This document shows, one piece after another, positions 25,398 through 34,293 of a stretch of DNA of 37,291 nt (positions are counted from its first letter, which is position 1; each line of letters begins with the position of its first letter). Below the pieces are notes generated by a model that was not told the DNA's origin, searched no databases, and worked only from the letters and a program-made list of their open reading frames with translations. Source of the DNA: Armatimonadota bacterium (GTDB lineage: Bacteria > Sysuimicrobiota > Sysuimicrobiia > Sysuimicrobiales > Humicultoraceae); contig JBBIOM010000019.1 in assembly GCA_037443365.1 (NCBI GenBank), positions 1 to 37,291 on the forward strand, written 5' to 3'. The position numbers and the translations under genes were made by a program.

Positions 25398-26129
25398 GTG
25401 AAGAAGCAAACGCCTGCCCAGCTCGAAGCGCTCCAGCGACTGATGCAGATGGCCGATACCCCCCCGAACCTGGAGGCGATGCAGTATGTCGTGTTCCAGT
25501 TCGACTTCCGCGACTACGACCAGTTCATCGTTGAGTGCCCGCCGGGTAGCATTCGCTTCAACAACCTGATCCGCATGGCCGTCTTCTGCGACAATGTTGG
25601 TTTCCTGGTGGAGAACGGCGTGGTGGATCGCGAGGCTGTATTCGAGCTCTTTCCCGTCCCCTGGGCGAAGGTCGAGCCCGTGATCCTGGGGATGCGCAAG
25701 GACCTGGACTGGCCCGACACCTTTGACTACTTCGAGCGTCTGGGGAGGGAGTACGTGAAGTGGTGGGAGGCCAAGCGCAAGCGGCTCAACGTACCGCCCA
25801 GTTCGCCCGAGCTGGGTGGCATGCCCCGGTCACTGGCCGTGGGCAAGCCCCGGCCGCCGGTCCCGGCCAGGCCTGCCCCGCCACCCAGGCCTGCTACGCC
25901 CACCCGCCCGCCAGCGCCCGTCCCTGCTGCGGCTCGCGCCCCTCACCTCGCGCCTCCGGCGGTATCCGCCGAAGCCGCGCCGGTGAAGCGCACGCTGCGG
26001 GTCAAGGTCCCCTCCAGGACTCCGTACAAGCCGGTCAGGATCGTCAGGAAGGAGAAGGCGAGCCCACGTCCCCGGCCAAAGGCGCGCGCCAAGGCCGCGC
26101 CCGCGAAGAGCAAGCCGAGGAAGCGATAG
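25398..26129 (+). CDS. DUF4760-like helical protein with a Pro/Ala/Lys/Arg-rich C-terminal tail
   Basis: GAGGTG SD. N-terminal pattern F..VG.LV.NG.VD...W.KVEP.I.GMR...P..F..FE.L recalls DUF4760; low-complexity basic tail. Confidence 0.6.
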   Translation: MKKQTPAQLEALQRLMQMADTPPNLEAMQYVVFQFDFRDYDQFIVECPPGSIRFNNLIRMAVFCDNVGFLVENGVVDREAVFELFPVPWAKVEPVILGMRKDLDWPDTFDYFERLGREYVKWWEAKRKRLNVPPSSPELGGMPRSLAVGKPRPPVPARPAPPPRPATPTRPPAPVPAAARAPHLAPPAVSAEAAPVKRTLRVKVPSRTPYKPVRIVRKEKASPRPRPKARAKAAPAKSKPRKR

Positions 26130-26133
26130 CCGG

Positions 26134-26841
26134 GTGGCCGCACTCCAGCTCTATGATCTCCAGCAGCTCGATGCGGCCGTCGCACGCACCGTAGCGACTC
26201 GCGCCGGCCTCGACGACGGCGCCGCGCAGCGCGCGGCGGTTGCCGTCGCGGTCCAGGAATTGGACAATGTGCGGGATCGGCTGGCCGCCTGGCAGGCCCG
26301 CCTGCGCGTGCTCGACCTCGAGACGAGTTCCATCGAGGCCAAGCGCGCCAAGTTCGAGTCCGAGCTCTACAGCGGCCGCACCGGCAATCCGAAGGAGCTG
26401 GCCGCCATGGCCGACGAGATACGCCTCCTGGAGCGTCTGAAGGCGGGTCTTGAGGAGGAGACACTGGTGCTGATGGAGCAGGTCGAGCGGGCCGAGTCGC
26501 AGGCGCGCGAGACCGCTGCCGCCCTCGCGGCCAACCAGGCCGCGTTGACCCGGCAGGAGGCTGCGTTCGTCGCGGCGACGGCGGCCGCCGATGACGAGAT
26601 CGCGAGCCTGACCGCCCGGAGATCGGCGCTCGCGGCTCAGATTGACGAGGCGTTGCTCCGGCGGTACGAGCGGCTGCGCGAGCACAAGGGCGGGATCGCG
26701 GTGGTGGCGGTCACGGGTGGGATCTGTGGGGGCTGCCACGTCGCCATCCCGGAGGGGCGGCTACAGAAGATCGCCGCGGATCCCGACGCGCTGGCATCAT
26801 GCGACGGCTGCGGACGCCTGCTCGTGGTTCGCGCACAGTGA
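26134..26841 (+). CDS. C4-type zinc-ribbon coiled-coil protein (DUF164/CT398-like)
   Basis: LYDLQQLD start, long coiled coil, CGGCH...CDGCGRLL. Confidence 0.92.
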   Translation: MAALQLYDLQQLDAAVARTVATRAGLDDGAAQRAAVAVAVQELDNVRDRLAAWQARLRVLDLETSSIEAKRAKFESELYSGRTGNPKELAAMADEIRLLERLKAGLEEETLVLMEQVERAESQARETAAALAANQAALTRQEAAFVAATAAADDEIASLTARRSALAAQIDEALLRRYERLREHKGGIAVVAVTGGICGGCHVAIPEGRLQKIAADPDALASCDGCGRLLVVRAQ

Positions 26842-28145
26842 AGCTCCGGCTGCTCGTGGACGGTGCCTCGAGGGGGAATCCCGGCCCCTCTGCAATTGGA
26901 GTGGTGGTGCAGGACTCCCACGGCCGGGTGGTCGCCGAGGTATCCGAGACCCTTGGTGTGGCCACCAACAACGTCGCCGAGTACGAGGCGCTGCTCCGAG
27001 CCCTGGAGGAAGCCCGCGCGCGTGGGGCAGACGAGGTCGAGATACTGGCCGACAGCGACCTCCTGGTCCGGCAGATAACCGGCGTCTACAAGGTCAAGAG
27101 CCCCAACCTGGCGCCCCTGCATCGAGCCGCGCTCGGCGCGCTTGCGGGCTTCCGCAGATGGCGCGTCACGTACATCCCGCGCAGCCGGAATGCAGCGGCC
27201 GACGCTTTGGCCAACCGCGCCCTGGACGCCTCGCCCTCGGAGGCAGCGGCCTCGCGCGCGAGCGATGCCGGCGCCGGCTTGCGCCGAGAGCTCGCTCGCT
27301 TGTCAAGCCGGCTGGATGGCGCACTTGGCGTCGGCGTCAAGACAATCTGGGACGGCCAGGAGTTGTTCCTCGAACCCGACCGGCCGTTTCCGACGGCCAG
27401 CGTGTTCAAGATCCCGGTGCTTTACGAGCTGCTGCTGCAGGTCGAGGAGGGACGCCTGGATCTCGACGCCAGGGTGGCGGTGACCGAGGAGATGAAGTCC
27501 CCGGGCTCGGGCGTCCTGAAGGAGTTGACTTCTTCCCCGGCGCTGAGCGTGGCGGACCTGGCGATGCTGATGATCATCATCAGCGACAACACCGCCACAG
27601 ACATACTGGTCGACATGGTCGGCAAGCAAGCCGTCAACCAGCGGCTGGCAGGGTGGGGCTTCTCGGTGACGCGCGTGCCCATGAGCTGCCGGGAACTGCT
27701 CTTCGAGCTGGCGGGCCGCCCCCGCGGCCCCTTCACCCCGGCGGCGCGCCTGGAAGTGGAGCAGGTGTTGAAGACGCGAGAGCGGTCCCTGACCGGAAGG
27801 GCCTACGCGGACCACAACAACAACCTCAGCACTCCCCGGGAGATGCTCGGGCTGCTCGAGATGCTCGTGCGCGACGGGCCGCTTCCGGCCCGCGTGCGCG
27901 AACGGGCACTGCACTTCATGCGCCGCCAGCAGGTACGCGACCGGCTGCCGCTCCACCTGCCGCCCGGCGCGGAGATCGCTCACAAGACAGGCTCGATCGC
28001 GGGTGTCCGCAACGACGCCGGGATCCTGTTCGTGCAGCGCGGGCCGGTGCTGGTCTGTGCCTTCGCCCGTGATCTGGCGGAAGATCAGGCCGGCGCCGCC
28101 GCGATCGCCGAGGTGGGACGGTTGGTGCACGCTGCCTTCGCCTGA
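26838..28145 (+). CDS. Ribonuclease HI fused to a class A beta-lactamase-like serine hydrolase
   Basis: N-terminal DGASRGNPG, TNNVAEY, DSDL, RNAAADALAN (RNase HI DEDD); C-terminal ASVFK, SDN, HKTG; GTG 26838 overlaps the upstream TGA. Confidence 0.9.
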   Translation: MKLRLLVDGASRGNPGPSAIGVVVQDSHGRVVAEVSETLGVATNNVAEYEALLRALEEARARGADEVEILADSDLLVRQITGVYKVKSPNLAPLHRAALGALAGFRRWRVTYIPRSRNAAADALANRALDASPSEAAASRASDAGAGLRRELARLSSRLDGALGVGVKTIWDGQELFLEPDRPFPTASVFKIPVLYELLLQVEEGRLDLDARVAVTEEMKSPGSGVLKELTSSPALSVADLAMLMIIISDNTATDILVDMVGKQAVNQRLAGWGFSVTRVPMSCRELLFELAGRPRGPFTPAARLEVEQVLKTRERSLTGRAYADHNNNLSTPREMLGLLEMLVRDGPLPARVRERALHFMRRQQVRDRLPLHLPPGAEIAHKTGSIAGVRNDAGILFVQRGPVLVCAFARDLAEDQAGAAAIAEVGRLVHAAFA

Positions 28146-28181: not shown

Positions 28182-28210
28182 TTGACCCCTCCCCAGGCCG
28201 GTGCTACCAT
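28182..28210 (+). promoter_or_regulatory. sigma70-type promoter of rnpB
   Basis: TTGACC, 17-bp spacer, TACCAT with TGn extension, 5 nt before the RNA. Confidence 0.8.
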
Positions 28211-28215
28211 CGGAT

Positions 28216-28570
28216 GGGAGCAGGCCGGGCGGTCGCGGCGCGCAGGCGTCGAGGAAAGTCCGGGCTCCGCAGGGCAGGGTGCCGGGTAACCCCCGGCGGG
28301 GGCGACCCCAGGGACAGTGCCACAGAAACATACCGCCGGAGGGCTCGTCCCTCCGGCAAGGGTGAAACGGCGGGGTAAGGGCCCGCCGGCGGCCTGGCGA
28401 CAGGCCGGCCAGGCAAACCCCACCCGGAGCAAGGCCAGATAGGGGGAGATGAGGCGGCCCGCTGATCCCCGGGTAGGCCGCTCGAGATCACGGGCAACCG
28501 GCGATCCCAGAGAGATGACAGCCGCGCCGGAGATCCCGGCGCACAGAACCCGGCTTACAGGCCTGCTCCC
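28216..28570 (+). ncRNA. rnpB: RNase P RNA, bacterial type A
   Basis: GAGGAAAGTCCGGGCTCC, AGTGCCACAGAAA, GGTGAAAC, GGCAAACCCC..GGAGCAAG, ACAGAACCCGGCTTA; P1 GGGAGCAGGCC/GGCCTGCTCCC. Confidence 0.98.
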
Positions 28571-29785
28571 TTACGGATAGATCAGGTACGGGCTCCGCAG
28601 CATCTGGAACCGCCGTAGTTCGGGCTCCCAGCGAGCGGCGATTGCCGATGCCGGGGCGCCTCTTGTGATGGCCTTGCGCACGCTGCTGGTCCCCCAGACG
28701 AAGTCGAACATGTACCGGCCGCCCCGCGGCACGAACTGCAGCGTTGCGCCGTGGAGCCGCCGGATCTCGCACAGTATGTGGACCGCGGTGGTCGCGGGCC
28801 GGAAGCGCAGCGGGTCCGTCAACACCAGGCGGATCCCGCGGAGCGTGCTCCCTCCCCGCTCGAACTCGTATGCCTCAAACGTCACGCCTGCCAGCCCGAT
28901 CGCGTTGAGGCGCGCAGCCAGCCGGTCGCCGTTCAGCCACGGGCTTATCACGACCTCGAAGGGGTGCGGGGTGCCTATGCCGGCCGAGAGGTTCGTGCCG
29001 TCCAGTACGCCCGTGGCCGCATAGTAGAAGGGCGTCATCATCGTCGGGATGTTGGGCGACGGCCGCACCCAGGGCAGGCCCGTCTCTCCCCAGACCGTGC
29101 GGCGCGACCACCCTCGCATCGGCACCACGGTTAGCTGCGCGTTGATCTCGTACAACCAGTTGAAGAGCTGGGCCAGCTCACCCATCGTCATGCCGTGCAC
29201 CAGCGGTATCGGGTACATGCCGATGAACGACCTGTAGGCGGGCTCCAGCACAGGCCCGTCAATCTGCAGGCCGCCCTGCGGGTTGGGCCGGTCGAGGACC
29301 ACCACCGGCCTGCCGGCCTCGCGCGCGGCCTGCAGCACCAGCGCCATCGTGGACGCGTACGTGTAGGCGCGCGCGCCGACGTCTTGGAGATCAATCACAA
29401 AGGCGTCTATGCCCGCCATCATCTCGGGCGTGGGCCTGCGCGTGGCGCTGTAGAGACTGTAGACCGGCACACGGCCGGCAAGATCCGGGACCGCCTGGCC
29501 CGCGGGAATCGTTCCAGCGACCCCGTGCTCCGGGGCGAACAGGGCGCTGACCGTAAACCGCGGGTCGCGGAGCAGTGCGCTCGACGTCGTCTCGCCGGCG
29601 GCGGTCAGGCCCGCGGCGTGCGTCACGAGCCCGATGCGGCGCCCCTGCAGGAGCTCCGGCGTCTCCAGGAGAACATCCACGCCGGGCCGCGTCGGGCCCG
29701 CGGGCTGCGCCTCGGTGCGGCCGGGGCAGGAGGGAGAGGCGAGCAGGAGCAGCAGGGTCAGGAGGACGGCAGCGAGCGCGCGCAT
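28571..29785 (-). CDS. namZ: Exported exo-beta-N-acetylmuramidase NamZ (YbbC/DUF1343 family)
   Basis: Signal peptide MRALAAVLLTLLLLLA; LFAPEHG, DLQDVGARAYTY, VLDRPNP, HGMTMGELA, PSPNIP. Confidence 0.88.
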   Translation of the reverse strand: MRALAAVLLTLLLLLASPSCPGRTEAQPAGPTRPGVDVLLETPELLQGRRIGLVTHAAGLTAAGETTSSALLRDPRFTVSALFAPEHGVAGTIPAGQAVPDLAGRVPVYSLYSATRRPTPEMMAGIDAFVIDLQDVGARAYTYASTMALVLQAAREAGRPVVVLDRPNPQGGLQIDGPVLEPAYRSFIGMYPIPLVHGMTMGELAQLFNWLYEINAQLTVVPMRGWSRRTVWGETGLPWVRPSPNIPTMMTPFYYAATGVLDGTNLSAGIGTPHPFEVVISPWLNGDRLAARLNAIGLAGVTFEAYEFERGGSTLRGIRLVLTDPLRFRPATTAVHILCEIRRLHGATLQFVPRGGRYMFDFVWGTSSVRKAITRGAPASAIAARWEPELRRFQMLRSPYLIYP

Positions 29786-29888
29786 GATCGTCCTAGAATT
29801 CGGGCCGTGCGCGCCGATTCCCTGGCGGCCGCTCGACCCGATATCCCGGTGGGCTGGGCCGGCAGTCCGCCACATCTGAGGCGGGCTT

Positions 29889-31490
29889 GTGTCCAGCACC
29901 GCGATGCCCCCGAGTGACAAGGAACCCCAGGGCGGATTCGTGGCCCTGATGCGCCACCGCAACTACGGGTTGCTGTGGACGGGTCAGCTCATCTCCCAGG
30001 TGGGCGACCGGTTTCATTGGGTGGCCATCTCCCTCTGGGTGTACGCGCAGACCGGGTCGGCGCTCTCGGTTTCTTACGCGATCACCGCGCTATTGGTCGC
30101 GCCTGCTCTGGTCGGGTTCTACGCCGGCGCACTGGTTGACCGCCTCGACCGCCGCAGGATCCTGATCACCGCCGACCTGGTGCGCGCAGGGCTCGTGGCC
30201 GCCATCCCCTGGCTCATGCAGCAGGGGATCGCCTGGGTCTACCTCGACCTGTTCCTCATCTCCGCGGCGTCCGCGTTCTTCAGGCCGGCAATGTTCGCGG
30301 CGATCCCCCAGTCCGTTCCCAGGCCGCGACTGCTGCAGGCGAACGCCTACTTCGCCACCATGGACTCGAGCACCGAGGTGTTCGGGCCTGCCCTGGCCGG
30401 GCTCGTGGTGGCGAGGTTCGGCTACGCCACGGCCATGTACATTGACGCTGCCAGCTACCTGGTGTCGGCCCTGTTCGTGTCGGGCCTTTCGCTCCCGGCG
30501 CCCGAAAGGAGTCCGGACGACGCAGGAGCCACAGGCCGCCCGGGAACGATGCAGTCCATTCGGGAAGGCCTGCGGTACATCCGGAGAGACCGCATGCAGG
30601 TCGCCCTGCTGGGGTTCCTCCTGGCCGGGTTCTGGGTGGCAGGCCTGAACTCGCTCCAGACGCCGCTGGCCAAGGGTGTGCTCGGGGTCACCGACGAGCA
30701 GTTCGGCTGGTTCCAGAGCGTCTGGGGGATCGGGTTCATCGGAGCGTCGCTCTTGCTGGGCTGGTACGGCGGCCGGCTTCCCAAGGGCCATGCGATTGTC
30801 TTCGCCTATCTGCTTTGGGCGGCGGCCGCCGGCATCATGGGACTGAGCCCCAACTACGGCGTGCTCGTAGTGACGGGCTTCTGGGTCGGCTTCGCCAACA
30901 TGCTGCTCTTCGTGAACGTCTCGACCGTGCTGATGGAGCACACGCCGCCGGACAAGATCGGACGCGTGATCACCACCCGACAGGTGATGGTTGCGCTCAT
31001 TCGGGTGGCGGCGCTCGTGGGATTCGGGTGGCTGGCCGATCAGACCGGCGTGAGGCTGGCGATCCTGGTGATGGCAGGCATCTCGTTCGTCGGCACGCTG
31101 GCGGCCACTGTTCGGTATCCGGAGATGTGGCGGTACCGGTCCCCGGTGATGGCGCGGCCGCCGGAGGTGGCGCCTGTCGCAAGGGTGACCTTCGGGACGC
31201 TCAACCGGTACCTCGAGGCCCGCACCGATGCCGAGTTCGTGGTCTCAGAGCAACGGTGGCTCAACCTCGCGTCGCTGCTCATCGTCGGGGTGGGATGGGC
31301 CGCACTGCTCATCATCATGCCTGCGCAGGCGCTGGGGGTTGCCGCCTCCATCGCCGGGGCAGTAGGCCTGGCCGGCCTTGTGCGCGCTGCCGCCGGGCGG
31401 CTGAAGCCGGTGCTGGAGGAGCGGGAGCGCCGGGGCCCGGCCCTGTCGCTCGGCGCTGGCAGGAGGAAAAACGAAATGGGAGGCGAATAG
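29889..31490 (+). CDS. MFS transporter (DHA3/MFS_3-like) with C-terminal extension
   Basis: NYGLLWTGQLISQVGD, GALVDRLDRRRILI (motif A), FFRPA, REGLRYI; 12 or more TM segments. Confidence 0.93.
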   Translation: MSSTAMPPSDKEPQGGFVALMRHRNYGLLWTGQLISQVGDRFHWVAISLWVYAQTGSALSVSYAITALLVAPALVGFYAGALVDRLDRRRILITADLVRAGLVAAIPWLMQQGIAWVYLDLFLISAASAFFRPAMFAAIPQSVPRPRLLQANAYFATMDSSTEVFGPALAGLVVARFGYATAMYIDAASYLVSALFVSGLSLPAPERSPDDAGATGRPGTMQSIREGLRYIRRDRMQVALLGFLLAGFWVAGLNSLQTPLAKGVLGVTDEQFGWFQSVWGIGFIGASLLLGWYGGRLPKGHAIVFAYLLWAAAAGIMGLSPNYGVLVVTGFWVGFANMLLFVNVSTVLMEHTPPDKIGRVITTRQVMVALIRVAALVGFGWLADQTGVRLAILVMAGISFVGTLAATVRYPEMWRYRSPVMARPPEVAPVARVTFGTLNRYLEARTDAEFVVSEQRWLNLASLLIVGVGWAALLIIMPAQALGVAASIAGAVGLAGLVRAAAGRLKPVLEERERRGPALSLGAGRRKNEMGGE

Positions 31491-31753: not shown

Positions 31754-33058
31754 ATGCAGACCATAACACGCCAGGTACGCCTCTTCGTGGCAGTCGTGGT
31801 CGCCTCGGCGGCGGCCGTGGTGGTCTTGCACGCCGAGCGGGTCCCCTGGCATGCGTGGCCCCAGCTGATCTTGTTCTTCGGCTTGGCGGTCGTCGCCTAC
31901 TCGGCCCGCATCCCGGATCCGCGCGGCGGGGCGGTGACCCCTAGCACTCTCCTTTCCTATCTTGTCGTCTACTTGTTCAATCCTCCGACGGCCGTGCTCA
32001 TCATCGCGACCGGAAGAACCGTTGCCTACTCCCTGTCAAGAGGCTGGATACCCTGGCGCGCGCTCTTCAACGGCTCTCAGATCGCGCTCAGCGCTGCCGC
32101 GGGTGCGTGCGTATTCGCCATGCTTGGCGGAGTGCCCGGGGAGATCGAGCTGGCGTCGCGCTGGCCGGCGCTGCTAGTCGCCCCTCTGGCATTCCAGATC
32201 GCTAACAATTTCTTCGTGGCGTATGGCACGAGCAGCTGGAGGGGAACACCATTCCTGAGCACATGGTTCAGCAACACCCGCGACCTCTTCTGGCCGAATC
32301 TTCTGAGCATTCCCACGGCCATCCTGCTGGCGATTCTCTACACCGAGGTACACCCTGCCACCGTCCTGCTGTACGTGATGCTGTTACCGCTTCAGTGGCT
32401 GGCGCTCCACCTCTACATCAAGCGCCGCCAACTCTTTGCGCAGATCGTTGACGGCCTCGTAGTGGCGACGGACGTGAACTTCCCCCTGGGCAGGGGGCAC
32501 GCCAGGCGGGTGGCGGACCTGGCCGTCTCGATAGCGCGCGAGATGCGGTTGAGCGAGGCCGCGGTAGAATCGGTCCAGTTCGCGGCCCTCATGCACGACG
32601 TGGGCATGATCGGCAAAGATGAACTGCTGGACCGGCCTGTTCTGACCCCCGAAGACGCCGACGGCCTGCAAGACCACGTGCTGATAGGTGCCGAGGTGGC
32701 CAGAGAACTGCCGCGCAGAGAGATTGCCGCGATGATTCTGCGCCACCATGAACGATTCGACGGCGCAGGATACCCGGGGGGGCTGAAGGGCGAGGCCATC
32801 CCCCTGGGTGCGCGAATCATCGCGCTCGCCGAGGCCGCCGACAGCATGGCATTCGGGATCTATCCATATTCCGGAGCTATGCCCGCGGACGCGATTGCGC
32901 TCGTCGTCGAGAAGGAAAGGGGACGCGCCTTTGATCCAGAGGTCGCCGACGCCTTCGTCACGCTCGTGGAGAGGGGCCTCTACCCTCCTGGCGAGGCGCC
33001 CGTGGCTGAACCGCTCCCCCAGAAGGCGCTGCGGCTCGAGGAGACCCCGGCAACATGA
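31754..33058 (+). CDS. Membrane-anchored HD-GYP domain protein, degenerate
   Basis: About 7 N-terminal TM helices; HDVGM, HHERFDGAGYP; AEAADSM and YPYS replace the canonical AD..DA and RPYR. Confidence 0.9.
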   Translation: MQTITRQVRLFVAVVVASAAAVVVLHAERVPWHAWPQLILFFGLAVVAYSARIPDPRGGAVTPSTLLSYLVVYLFNPPTAVLIIATGRTVAYSLSRGWIPWRALFNGSQIALSAAAGACVFAMLGGVPGEIELASRWPALLVAPLAFQIANNFFVAYGTSSWRGTPFLSTWFSNTRDLFWPNLLSIPTAILLAILYTEVHPATVLLYVMLLPLQWLALHLYIKRRQLFAQIVDGLVVATDVNFPLGRGHARRVADLAVSIAREMRLSEAAVESVQFAALMHDVGMIGKDELLDRPVLTPEDADGLQDHVLIGAEVARELPRREIAAMILRHHERFDGAGYPGGLKGEAIPLGARIIALAEAADSMAFGIYPYSGAMPADAIALVVEKERGRAFDPEVADAFVTLVERGLYPPGEAPVAEPLPQKALRLEETPAT

Positions 33059-34293
33059 AGATCACCGGGCGGCTGATTGGTCTCAGGTCAGGGCTCGTGC
33101 TGATCGCCGCCTTCTCTCTAGGCCTGGGGCTTTCGACCGTTCACCGCGCCAACTTGCTTCCGGTGATCCTCCTCGTCGTGATGGCGGGCGTCGGGGAGTG
33201 GCTGGCCATTCGGCTCGGTCCGCAGGGTGTCTTTACGCTGCGGCCGGTCGCGGCTTTCGTCGGGCTGTGGATCGGTGGGCCGGCCATCCTGATGCTTGCA
33301 GGGCTGCTACCCATTCTCCTGGTGACCGTTCCCACTCGACGCCTCTCGGTCGGCGATGCCCTGCTCCAGGCAGGGGGGGACGCCCTGGGGTTCTGGGTCG
33401 GGTACCTGGCATACGCGGGGCTCGGTTGGGGCCTGGGATGGCATTGGGATCAGACGGCCGCTGTTGAGTTCGCCGCGCGCGCCGGAAGCATCATGGCGTT
33501 CTGGTGCATTCAGATCCCGTTCCAGGCGCTGGATCTCAACATCAGGGAGGGCATGCAGTTCAGGTCGGTCCTTCGGCACCTGACCCGGAATGGGTGGACG
33601 CACGTGGCCGCGCTCTCCGCCGCGGCCATCGCACTGAGCTACATCCAGGGCAGGTTCGGGCTGGTGGTCATGGGGATCGCCTCCGTAGTCCTCATCGAAG
33701 CCTACTATCCATGGAAGCTCCTTGGAGACCAGGGTGGTGTCCTGCTCACCAGCCTGCAGATGATGGCCCGGGCCGTTGACCTGAAGGATCCGTACACATC
33801 AAACCACTCCCAGAACGTGGCGCGATACGCGGTTCGCGTCGCCAGGGAAATGGACCTGCCAGAGACCGATGTCGAGCGCATCCGCATCGGCGCGCTCATG
33901 CACGACATCGGGAAGATCGGCATCAGCGGGCGCATCATCCGCAAGCCGGGCAGGTTGACACCCGACGAGCAGGCCGAGATGGCGCGCCACTCATCCGTGA
34001 GCGCGAACATCATCGAGCCCCTGGACATCCTGGGCGAATCGGCCGAGATGGTGCGTCACCACCATGAGCGATTGGATGGAGCTGGCTATCCCGATGGTCT
34101 GGTGGGAGCGCGGATTCCGGTGGGCTCCCGTATTATCCTTGTCGCTGACGCGTATGATGCGCTCACGACAGACAGGCCATACCGAAAGGGTGTCAGCTCG
34201 GCCGAGGCCATAGCCATTCTCAGACAGAACGCCGGAACGCAGTTCGACCGGATCGCCGTGGAAGCATTGCAGCGGGTTGCGTCCTACCTGTAG
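33055..34293 (+). CDS. Membrane-anchored HD-GYP c-di-GMP phosphodiesterase
   Basis: TM N-terminus; DLKDPYTSNHS, HDIGK, HHERLDGAGYP, ADAYDALTTDRPYRK, GTQFD. Confidence 0.93.
   Translation: MKITGRLIGLRSGLVLIAAFSLGLGLSTVHRANLLPVILLVVMAGVGEWLAIRLGPQGVFTLRPVAAFVGLWIGGPAILMLAGLLPILLVTVPTRRLSVGDALLQAGGDALGFWVGYLAYAGLGWGLGWHWDQTAAVEFAARAGSIMAFWCIQIPFQALDLNIREGMQFRSVLRHLTRNGWTHVAALSAAAIALSYIQGRFGLVVMGIASVVLIEAYYPWKLLGDQGGVLLTSLQMMARAVDLKDPYTSNHSQNVARYAVRVAREMDLPETDVERIRIGALMHDIGKIGISGRIIRKPGRLTPDEQAEMARHSSVSANIIEPLDILGESAEMVRHHHERLDGAGYPDGLVGARIPVGSRIILVADAYDALTTDRPYRKGVSSAEAIAILRQNAGTQFDRIAVEALQRVASYL

Follow-up and report, generated by a model that had tools for sequence, protein, structure and literature searches.

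A ribonuclease HI gene fused to a predicted serine hydrolase domain of class A beta-lactamase fold between a zinc-ribbon gene and rnpB in a family of Armatimonadota

The DNA analysed here is a stretch of 37,291 nucleotides (nts) from contig JBBIOM010000019.1 of an Armatimonadota bacterium (assembly GCA_037443365.1; hereafter the window), in which a single 435-codon open reading frame (ORF; 26838..28145, + strand) joins a ribonuclease (RNase) HI to a predicted serine hydrolase. The ORF list and Pfam divide the product into an RNase HI domain of the archaeal/actinobacterial RVT_3 type (residues 1-131; 26838..27230, +; assigned from Pfam and Protein Data Bank (PDB) sequence matches), an Ala/Ser/Gly low-complexity linker (residues 132-147; 27231..27278, +; delimited by model confidence and variation among homologues) and a serine hydrolase domain of the class-A-beta-lactamase/PBP-A fold (residues 148-435 plus the stop codon; 27279..28145, +; Pfam Beta-lactamase2 and Foldseek). 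The original prediction, made from the letters of the window, had described a 435-residue ORF with the four acidic residues of RNase HI, a linker and the motifs SxxK, SDN and KTG, all of which are present in the translation. The open frame itself extends over 26799..28145 (+) and would encode 448 residues from its ATG or 435 residues from the GTG at 26838, which overlaps the TGA stop of the upstream zinc-ribbon gene as GTGA. Because orthologues in the same genus have a GTG or ATG at the equivalent codon, 26838 is the likely start.

The upstream gene (26134..26841, +) encodes a 235-residue protein of the CT398/HP0958 type, with a coiled coil and a C4 zinc ribbon (Pfam CT398_CC, E 2.7e-20; Zn_ribbon_9, E 1.1e-8), which scores 56 bits against the NCBIfam CdsZ model, below its cut-off of 275. 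Downstream, 72 nts separate the stop codon of the fused gene from rnpB, encoding a bacterial class A RNase P RNA (28217..28573, +), which matches the full Rfam model RF00010 (RNaseP_bact_a; 264.9 bits, E 4.3e-86). The spacer contains a sigma-70-like sequence with an extended -10 element (28182..28210, +; TTGACC, 17 nts, TACCAT, with TG before the second hexamer), which ends 7 nts 5′ of the rnpB start. This is a match to the consensus only, and the sole one in the 3.7 kb between 25000 and 28700, for which shuffled sequences gave a mean of 0.1; rnpB is probably transcribed from its own promoter within the spacer.

The N-terminal domain matches Pfam RVT_3 (residues 7-128; E 2.8e-23, 82.6 bits against a cut-off of 21.6) and RNase_H (residues 5-83; E 1.5e-9, 38.6 bits against a cut-off of 25.8). 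Its catalytic acidic residues D8 (DGAS), E48 (AEY), D72 (DSD) and D122 (AAD) are intact, are invariant in 45 fused homologues and align with the motifs of PDB entries 4e19 (Halobacterium RNase HI, the best sequence match, E 1.9e-31 over residues 6-130), 3hst (N-terminal domain of mycobacterial Rv2228c, 2.2e-30) and 3u3g (5.9e-28). From its family membership, the domain should cut the RNA strand of RNA:DNA hybrids. In addition, no other RNase_H/RVT_3 match occurs in the genome, which is estimated to be 97.7% complete and carries an RNase HII gene elsewhere; as the only type 1 RNase H, the domain is therefore taken to be the housekeeping RNase HI. Archaeal-type RNases HI (4e19 from Halobacterium NRC-1, the metagenomic 3u3g/4h8k and 2ehg from Sulfolobus tokodaii) share the aligned active-site motifs and include the best match, but they are single-domain or N-terminally extended proteins and none has a hydrolase domain behind the nuclease.

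The fused gene is a real and intact two-domain gene. PF13456 and PF13354 occur together in 53 of the best 120 homologue clusters, at 63-86% identity, under source names such as ‘serine hydrolase [Armatimonadota bacterium]’ or ‘beta-lactamase class A/ribonuclease HI’. A genome search combined with frame tracing recovered an uninterrupted RNase H and hydrolase frame in 15 of 94 genomes of the phylum, all belonging to one family, f1 (G000, G027, G028, G029, G030, G031, G033, G005, G006, G008, G009, G020, G024, G025 and G026, with G029 and G024 cut by a contig end; G025 is unpublished and no result depends on it alone). The fused form is found in seven of the eight genomes of the window's genus, in four of six in genus g3 and in all of those in g9, g11 and g12, as well as in 8 of the 12 closest metagenome loci. 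An independent assembly of the probable source run, X1, is identical to the window over 26700-27582. The same study includes runs X2 and X3, whose contigs over 26976-27419 differ from the window by substitutions alone (27250 C>T, 27278 C>T, 27279 T>C and 27282 C>A); no piece from X2-X4 covers the whole gene. Neither an indel nor a stop was seen across the linker in the contigs, as opposed to raw reads, of runs X1, X2 and X3. The idea that an assembly or sequencing error in the linker had turned two genes into one gained no support, allowing that contigs were compared and that X1 may be the window's own source. It is hardly credible in view of the uninterrupted frame in 15 genomes and eight metagenome contigs, the 53 fused clusters and the X2 and X3 contigs, which cross 27092-27355 with the four substitutions and no indel; moreover, a shared sequencing error could not account for the differing linker lengths of fused homologues.

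Both domains are under purifying selection, with dN/dS values (ratios of nonsynonymous to synonymous substitution rates; Nei-Gojobori method, five same-genus genes) of 0.07-0.15 in the nuclease domain and 0.13-0.25 in the hydrolase domain. For pairs that include the window, dN in the linker is about 0.5 versus 0.07-0.09 in the domains, the linker value being drawn from just 17 codons. The structure model, built on a 45-sequence alignment, contains two confident domains (mean predicted local distance difference test score, pLDDT, 90.3), and its predicted template modelling score (pTM) of 0.68 indicates no fixed packing between them. The linker, SPSEAAASRASDAGAG (residues 132-147), has a pLDDT below 50 at residues 132-143 and varies in length and sequence among fused homologues, whose ORFs range from 432 to 482 residues (503 alignment columns for 45 proteins). 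As modelled, it is a disordered, fast-evolving tether between the domains. Near the domain boundary, the sole in-frame codon that could serve as a start is TTG 27279 (L148), which has no Shine-Dalgarno sequence close by, as had been predicted; the strain variants seen in X2 and X3 have CTG there.

The C-terminal domain matches Pfam Beta-lactamase2 over residues 165-409 (E 1.3e-59) and displays the serine-enzyme motifs S188-V-F-K191, S249-D-N251 and K383-T-G385, which show no variation across 45 fused homologues and 28 others that are split or stand alone. Its best PDB sequence matches are PBP-A (2j7v, 2.5e-28) and 4ewf (8e-26), followed by ancestral class A enzymes, LRA-5, BlaB and ORF12. Foldseek ordered the relatives as the sequence search did, with 4ewf, PBP-A and ancestral class A enzymes at target template modelling (TM) scores of 0.83-0.89 and PBP-A chains at ranks 5-11 (0.83-0.86). 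In both sequence and fold (Foldseek E about 1e-18 to 1e-19, target TM 0.83-0.87), the closest solved relatives are thus PBP-A, the Tll2115 protein of Thermosynechococcus elongatus, and 4ewf, a Sphaerobacter thermophilus structure deposited as a beta-lactamase; both have SxxK, SDN and KTG in common with the domain. PBP-A also has no Glu at the equivalent of position 166, entries 2j9o and 2jbf being titled ‘L158E mutant’. However, identity to the C-terminal domain is only 26-28%, and the omega-loop region of the latter is some 25-45 residues longer. Furthermore, passages of PMC11189452 describe PBP-A as a DD-peptidase that natively bears an N-terminal membrane anchor and acts outside the cytoplasm, whereas the C-terminal domain of the fused protein is cytoplasmic. 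Measured against the PBP-A type, the domain has a class-A-like fold without Glu166 but lacks the extracytoplasmic, membrane-anchored location, as it has no anchor and follows a cytoplasmic nuclease. The resemblance to PBP-A is one of fold only.

In an alignment with the ancestral class A enzymes, VTRVPMSCRELL pairs with VTRLDRWEPELN, so that Cys284 faces the Glu of the RWEPELN stretch, which we take to be Ambler position 166, and a Leu faces Asn170; the Glu166/Asn170 pair is missing from this alignment, in agreement with the predicted absence of a Glu166 motif. In the same alignment, the omega-loop region is enlarged by about 25-45 residues ahead of the NNLSTP stretch, and it has invariant residues of its own in the 45 fused proteins (C284, R285, R304, R316, G320, R321 and Y323). 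Cys284-Arg285, PGSGVLKE, RxYxD and RQQxRDRLP are invariant throughout the fused set and the 28 split or stand-alone homologues (49-70% identity), while in a wider set at 31-50% identity the invariant residues are those of the three classical motifs only. As anticipated, there is no signal peptide: in the structure model, residue 2 already starts strand 1 of the RNase H fold. Split and stand-alone homologues likewise have no signal peptide and start about 10 residues before the first helix. Some stand-alone homologues of about 300 residues (P0063, P0071, P0079, P0083, P0087, P0093 and P0106) begin with a very basic, Arg/Thr/Ser-rich extension of 20-70 residues that is not followed by a hydrophobic stretch. 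Separately, the source genome contains part of a second Beta-lactamase2 paralogue, cut by a contig end (G000:C29:25289-25510, - strand, locus L003) and 44% identical to residues 356-427, and many genomes of the phylum have paralogues at about 35-45% identity.

These features bear on the possibility that the C-terminal domain functions as a beta-lactamase or senses beta-lactams. Class A beta-lactamases (including the ancestral GNCA/PNCA enzymes and the inactive, precursor-like LRA-5) share its fold and its three active-site motifs, and NCBIfam bla_class_A (NF033103) matches it with an E value of 2.1e-37. This match, at 128.7 bits, is nonetheless below the curated cut-off of 200, the position aligned with Glu166 is a Cys adjoining an enlarged omega-loop region, no export signal is present and the protein is cytoplasmic. 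The nearest solved relatives are PBP-A, a DD-peptidase, and 4ewf, which was labelled a beta-lactamase on deposition. Of four features tested for class A membership, only the SxxK/SDN/KTG set was found, while Glu166, the family cut-off and the export signal were not, and the fused protein is not assigned to this class for that reason. A role as beta-lactamase or sensor is accordingly given little credence. For comparison, LRA-5 lacks Glu166, and according to PMC12777564 V166E is among the changes that it needs for beta-lactamase activity. We read the domain instead as a cytoplasmic serine acyl-hydrolase that would have kept the acylation machinery and would not be a beta-lactamase. Since a Cys replaces the deacylating Glu166 and the omega-loop region is enlarged, it is expected to act on a cytoplasmic substrate as a peptidase, amidase or esterase. 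Beta-lactams may acylate such a domain, with no efficient turnover expected.

The gene order around the fused gene was compared across 35 RNase H loci, comprising the 15 fused loci and those of 20 non-fused genomes of the phylum. The zinc-ribbon gene lies 5′ of RNase H in all 35 and rnpB lies 3′ in 28, the misses being contig ends or the lack of a match within the fetched stretch, and the prediction that zinc-ribbon, rnhA and rnpB form a recurring order thus holds in this phylum. A literature search returned no statement on rnpB adjacency in Actinobacteria, which was not tested on genomes. In 13 of the 20 non-fused loci (L037:2738-3022, -; L042:3413-3649, +; L038, L039 and L043-L051), as well as in the metagenome loci L057 and L058, RNase H carries a C-terminal tail of 68-95 residues with the motif VPALPG...LP(K/R)E(E/H)R; the other seven encode five short RNases H (135-144 residues) and two with different tails. 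Matches of the tail to Pfam HicB_lk_antitox stay below threshold (E 8.8e-4 and 0.084 for two of ten sequences), a profile search of the PDB gave HicB 6g1n (E 0.003) and TTHA0281 (E 0.019), and the best 12 Foldseek rows for a tail model (pLDDT 87) are all TTHA0281 or HicB (E 0.02-0.16, TM 0.54-0.64). These three weak lines agree on a domain resembling the HicB N-terminus or UPF0150.

The fused proteins, including that of the window, have no HicB-like tail, and tblastn of four tails against 23 fused loci in all frames detected no remnant of it in the linker DNA (best E 0.009, noise). The absence of a tail that most relatives possess would suit a pseudoenzyme, in which the hydrolase fold is a silent binding or scaffolding module that replaced the tail as an accessory of RNase H, and BlaB, a class-A-fold regulatory protein according to its entry title, is among the matches of the domain. 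The three motifs invariant in 45 fused and 28 other homologues are nevertheless the pattern of an active acyl-enzyme, and orthologues of the hydrolase exist without any RNase H, so that a catalytically silent module has a slim chance of being the correct explanation.

Four states are found among the relatives: RNase H with the HicB-like tail, adjacent coupled genes, the fusion, and RNase H alone. In G021/L042, L057 and L058, the hydrolase is a separate gene directly behind a tailed RNase H; the junction in G021/L042, ...GGAGGAGTCGTAAATG, consists of a TAA followed by an ATG, with a GGAGGAG Shine-Dalgarno sequence 6 nts upstream, and the metagenome loci L057 and L058 correspond to the 291-residue proteins P0056-P0059. 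Two-gene relatives and a stop or frameshift in the linker had been named beforehand as signs that the fusion is not genuine; the former exist at these three loci, but the latter is absent from the contigs of the three runs. At L064, also a member of the clade, no RNase H occurs in the 570 nts upstream of the hydrolase, where a minus-strand ORF lies. G004 and G007, of the same genus as four fused genomes, have a 139-residue RNase H followed by rnpB and no orthologous hydrolase, just a paralogue at about 45% identity. In family f4, an orthologue at 51-53% identity is on a different contig from the RNase H gene; it is followed by a major facilitator superfamily (MFS) gene in all four genomes of one genus and, in another genus, preceded by a gene for gamma-glutamyltranspeptidase (GGT; two genomes) or an S9 peptidase (two genomes). 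A shared module of MFS gene and hydrolase was considered and rejected, as the MFS gene of the window (29889-31490) and the one adjacent to the orthologue are dissimilar (E 1.4).

In a maximum-likelihood tree of 38 hydrolase domains, from which the short rows L014, L016 and L067 were dropped, the rnhA-linked hydrolases form a clade (100/100) separate from the stand-alone clade of f4 (100/100). The backbone of the linked clade is a polytomy, with which a single fusion event is compatible. Under the proposed scenario, a resident stand-alone hydrolase gene would have relocated between rnhA and rnpB and become translationally coupled to rnhA, as suggested by the TAAATG junction and GGAGGAG sequence of split relatives. 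The two frames would then have merged, with loss of the ancestral HicB-like tail of RNase H.

The closest known parallel is mycobacterial RnhC (Rv2228c/MSMEG_4305), which similarly begins with an RVT_3-type RNase HI (3hst, E 2.2e-30) and continues, after a variable linker, into a second enzyme; the gene directly upstream is likewise of the CT398 zinc-ribbon type. Within PMC7466739, Rv2229c is placed in an operon with Rv2228c, and Rv2230c of the same operon is called a predicted GTP cyclohydrolase; a CT398-type zinc-ribbon structure is reported for MSMEG_4306 in PMC5947703. In contrast, the partner in RnhC is a CobC-like histidine phosphatase, while here it has the penicillin-binding/beta-lactamase fold, and the present fusion arose separately, within one family of another phylum. 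The NCBIfam model NF005567 (RNase H/acid phosphatase) covers residues 1-143 only, at profile positions 2-145 of 378 and with 139.8 bits against a cut-off of 326, and Pfam detected no phosphatase family or His_Phos match in the fused protein. The hydrolase hence occupies the C-terminal position held in RnhC by the phosphatase, as had been proposed, and because the partner domain differs the fused protein falls outside the RnhC family. For MSMEG_4305, passages of PMC7466739 report a functional dissociation of the domains, a variable linker, fixation probably by drift, and hardly any change in growth or hybrid levels upon removal of the CobC domain. According to its title, a preprint (10.1101/2022.11.09.515703) traces rifampicin and pigmentation phenotypes to that phosphatase.

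A full HMMER scan of 1.84 billion representatives at 50% identity gave 25,524 matches, and among the best 150 both domains occur in one 50%-identity cluster (P0039, plus the fragments P0055 and P0061). The pairing, which the original prediction had presented as unfamiliar, is indeed unusual and is confined to one narrow clade. Pfam was run on 40 of these 150, picked for several matched stretches or extra length, and no RVT_3 and Beta-lactamase2 fusion from elsewhere was found among the 40; the other rows are mostly of about 140-340 residues, too short for both domains, with a few longer single-stretch proteins (P0215, 373 residues). The 40 comprise tandem RNases H, tandem Beta-lactamase2 domains, or either domain with other partners, namely NIF3, FMN reductase, SAP and tryptophan 2,3-dioxygenase for RNase H, and ChaN and PDZ for Beta-lactamase2. 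RVT_3-type RNase H is a frequent fusion partner of unrelated enzymes. It is joined to tryptophan 2,3-dioxygenase, NIF3/DUF34 or FMN reductase, or present as three tandem copies behind SAP, in P0222, P0227, P0248, P0212, P0142, P0149 and P0240. NIF3 is a notable partner in that Rv2230c of the mycobacterial operon is presumably a NIF3-type protein. Limited word searches of the literature found no description of a fusion between RNase H and a beta-lactamase fold.

The probable explanation, which we favour with some reserve, is a lineage-specific fusion of translationally coupled neighbours that yields a bifunctional cytoplasmic protein whose halves act independently. The two-domain architecture is conserved, its evolutionary states are extant and both domains are constrained. 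By analogy with the mycobacterial RNase H/CobC fusion, we infer that the two domains work independently. Several points weigh against this reading. We infer both enzymatic activities, and Cys284 was assigned to position 166 from the sequence alignment. The Cys-Arg pair, invariant in the close family, is just the majority residue pair in the wider family of about 300-residue proteins. The MFS, GGT and S9 peptidase neighbours of stand-alone orthologues are just hints to the substrate, and, given the polytomy, the split state may have come first or arisen by later fission. In addition, three observations would also fit a functional partnership, namely persistence of the fusion, with both halves under purifying selection, in at least five genera, the tight translational coupling kept at the TAAATG junction of split relatives and the single clade of rnhA-linked hydrolases. 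In such a partnership, the hydrolase would act on a substrate tied to nucleic acid, such as an acyl or peptidyl ester on RNA or DNA, or would sense a small molecule, such as a precursor ending in D-Ala-D-Ala, and modulate RNase H. The many invariant Arg of the hydrolase domain and the Arg/Thr-rich N-terminal tails of some stand-alone homologues point the same way.

Such coupling is nevertheless considered unlikely. G004 and G007 belong to an otherwise fused genus but encode RNase H and no such hydrolase, the L064 hydrolase is apart from rnhA, and stand-alone orthologues adjoin transporter and peptidase genes rather than nucleic-acid genes. Moreover, the linker is disordered and variable, the pTM of 0.68 suggests no fixed interface, and RNase H of this type has several unrelated enzymes as fusion partners. 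The suggestion that the protein links R-loop or primer removal to an acyl-hydrolase or beta-lactam-sensing activity finds no support, given G004, G007, L064 and the neighbours of the stand-alone orthologues, together with the split genes of G021/L042, L057 and L058. A bolder version holds that the C-terminus of RNase HI at the zinc-ribbon/rnhA/rnpB locus is a slot that recurrently captures enzymes in a useful partnership. Here, the Cys166-type hydrolase would work with RNase H, either by deacylating or depeptidylating nucleic acid or by sensing wall precursors ending in D-Ala-D-Ala; this is regarded as a long shot. The independent action of two fused enzymes is preferred over both.

Other genes surround the locus. 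Immediately 5′ of the zinc-ribbon gene, a 243-residue ORF (25398-26129, +) has a long Pro/Ala/Lys/Arg-rich C-terminal tail and a weak match to DUF4760 (E 8.4e-4), below cut-off. Convergent with rnpB, a homologue of the cell-wall salvage enzyme NamZ, an exo-beta-N-acetylmuramidase (28571-29962, -; NamZ_N E 6.5e-75, NamZ_C 9.3e-35) has a stop codon that begins at 28571 and overlaps the final bases of rnpB, which ends at 28573. Further downstream (31754-34293, +) are genes for two adjacent HD_5/HD-domain proteins of 434 and 412 residues, possibly signalling proteins of the HD-GYP type; a MASE9 sensor domain is present in the first.

The fusion alone opens no long-standing question and is a different-partner version of a known kind of multidomain RNase HI, as exemplified by mycobacterial RnhC. 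If the bolder version, with its enzyme-capturing slot, were true, it would give the penicillin-binding fold a cytoplasmic, nucleic-acid-linked role never described for it, and in its sensing variant would couple hybrid removal to the status of the cell envelope. If the favoured reading holds, namely coupled neighbours that merged into a protein with independent halves, the locus would record the stepwise birth of a bacterial multidomain enzyme with all intermediates extant in related genomes. It would also be a second independent case, beside mycobacterial RnhC, of this RNase HI type gaining an unrelated C-terminal enzyme at the same conserved locus. Finally, it would mark a sizeable family of class-A-fold serine hydrolases, cytoplasmic and uncharacterised, in which a Cys occupies the Glu166 position and for which the pipeline name ‘beta-lactamase class A’ is probably misleading in resistance-gene surveys.

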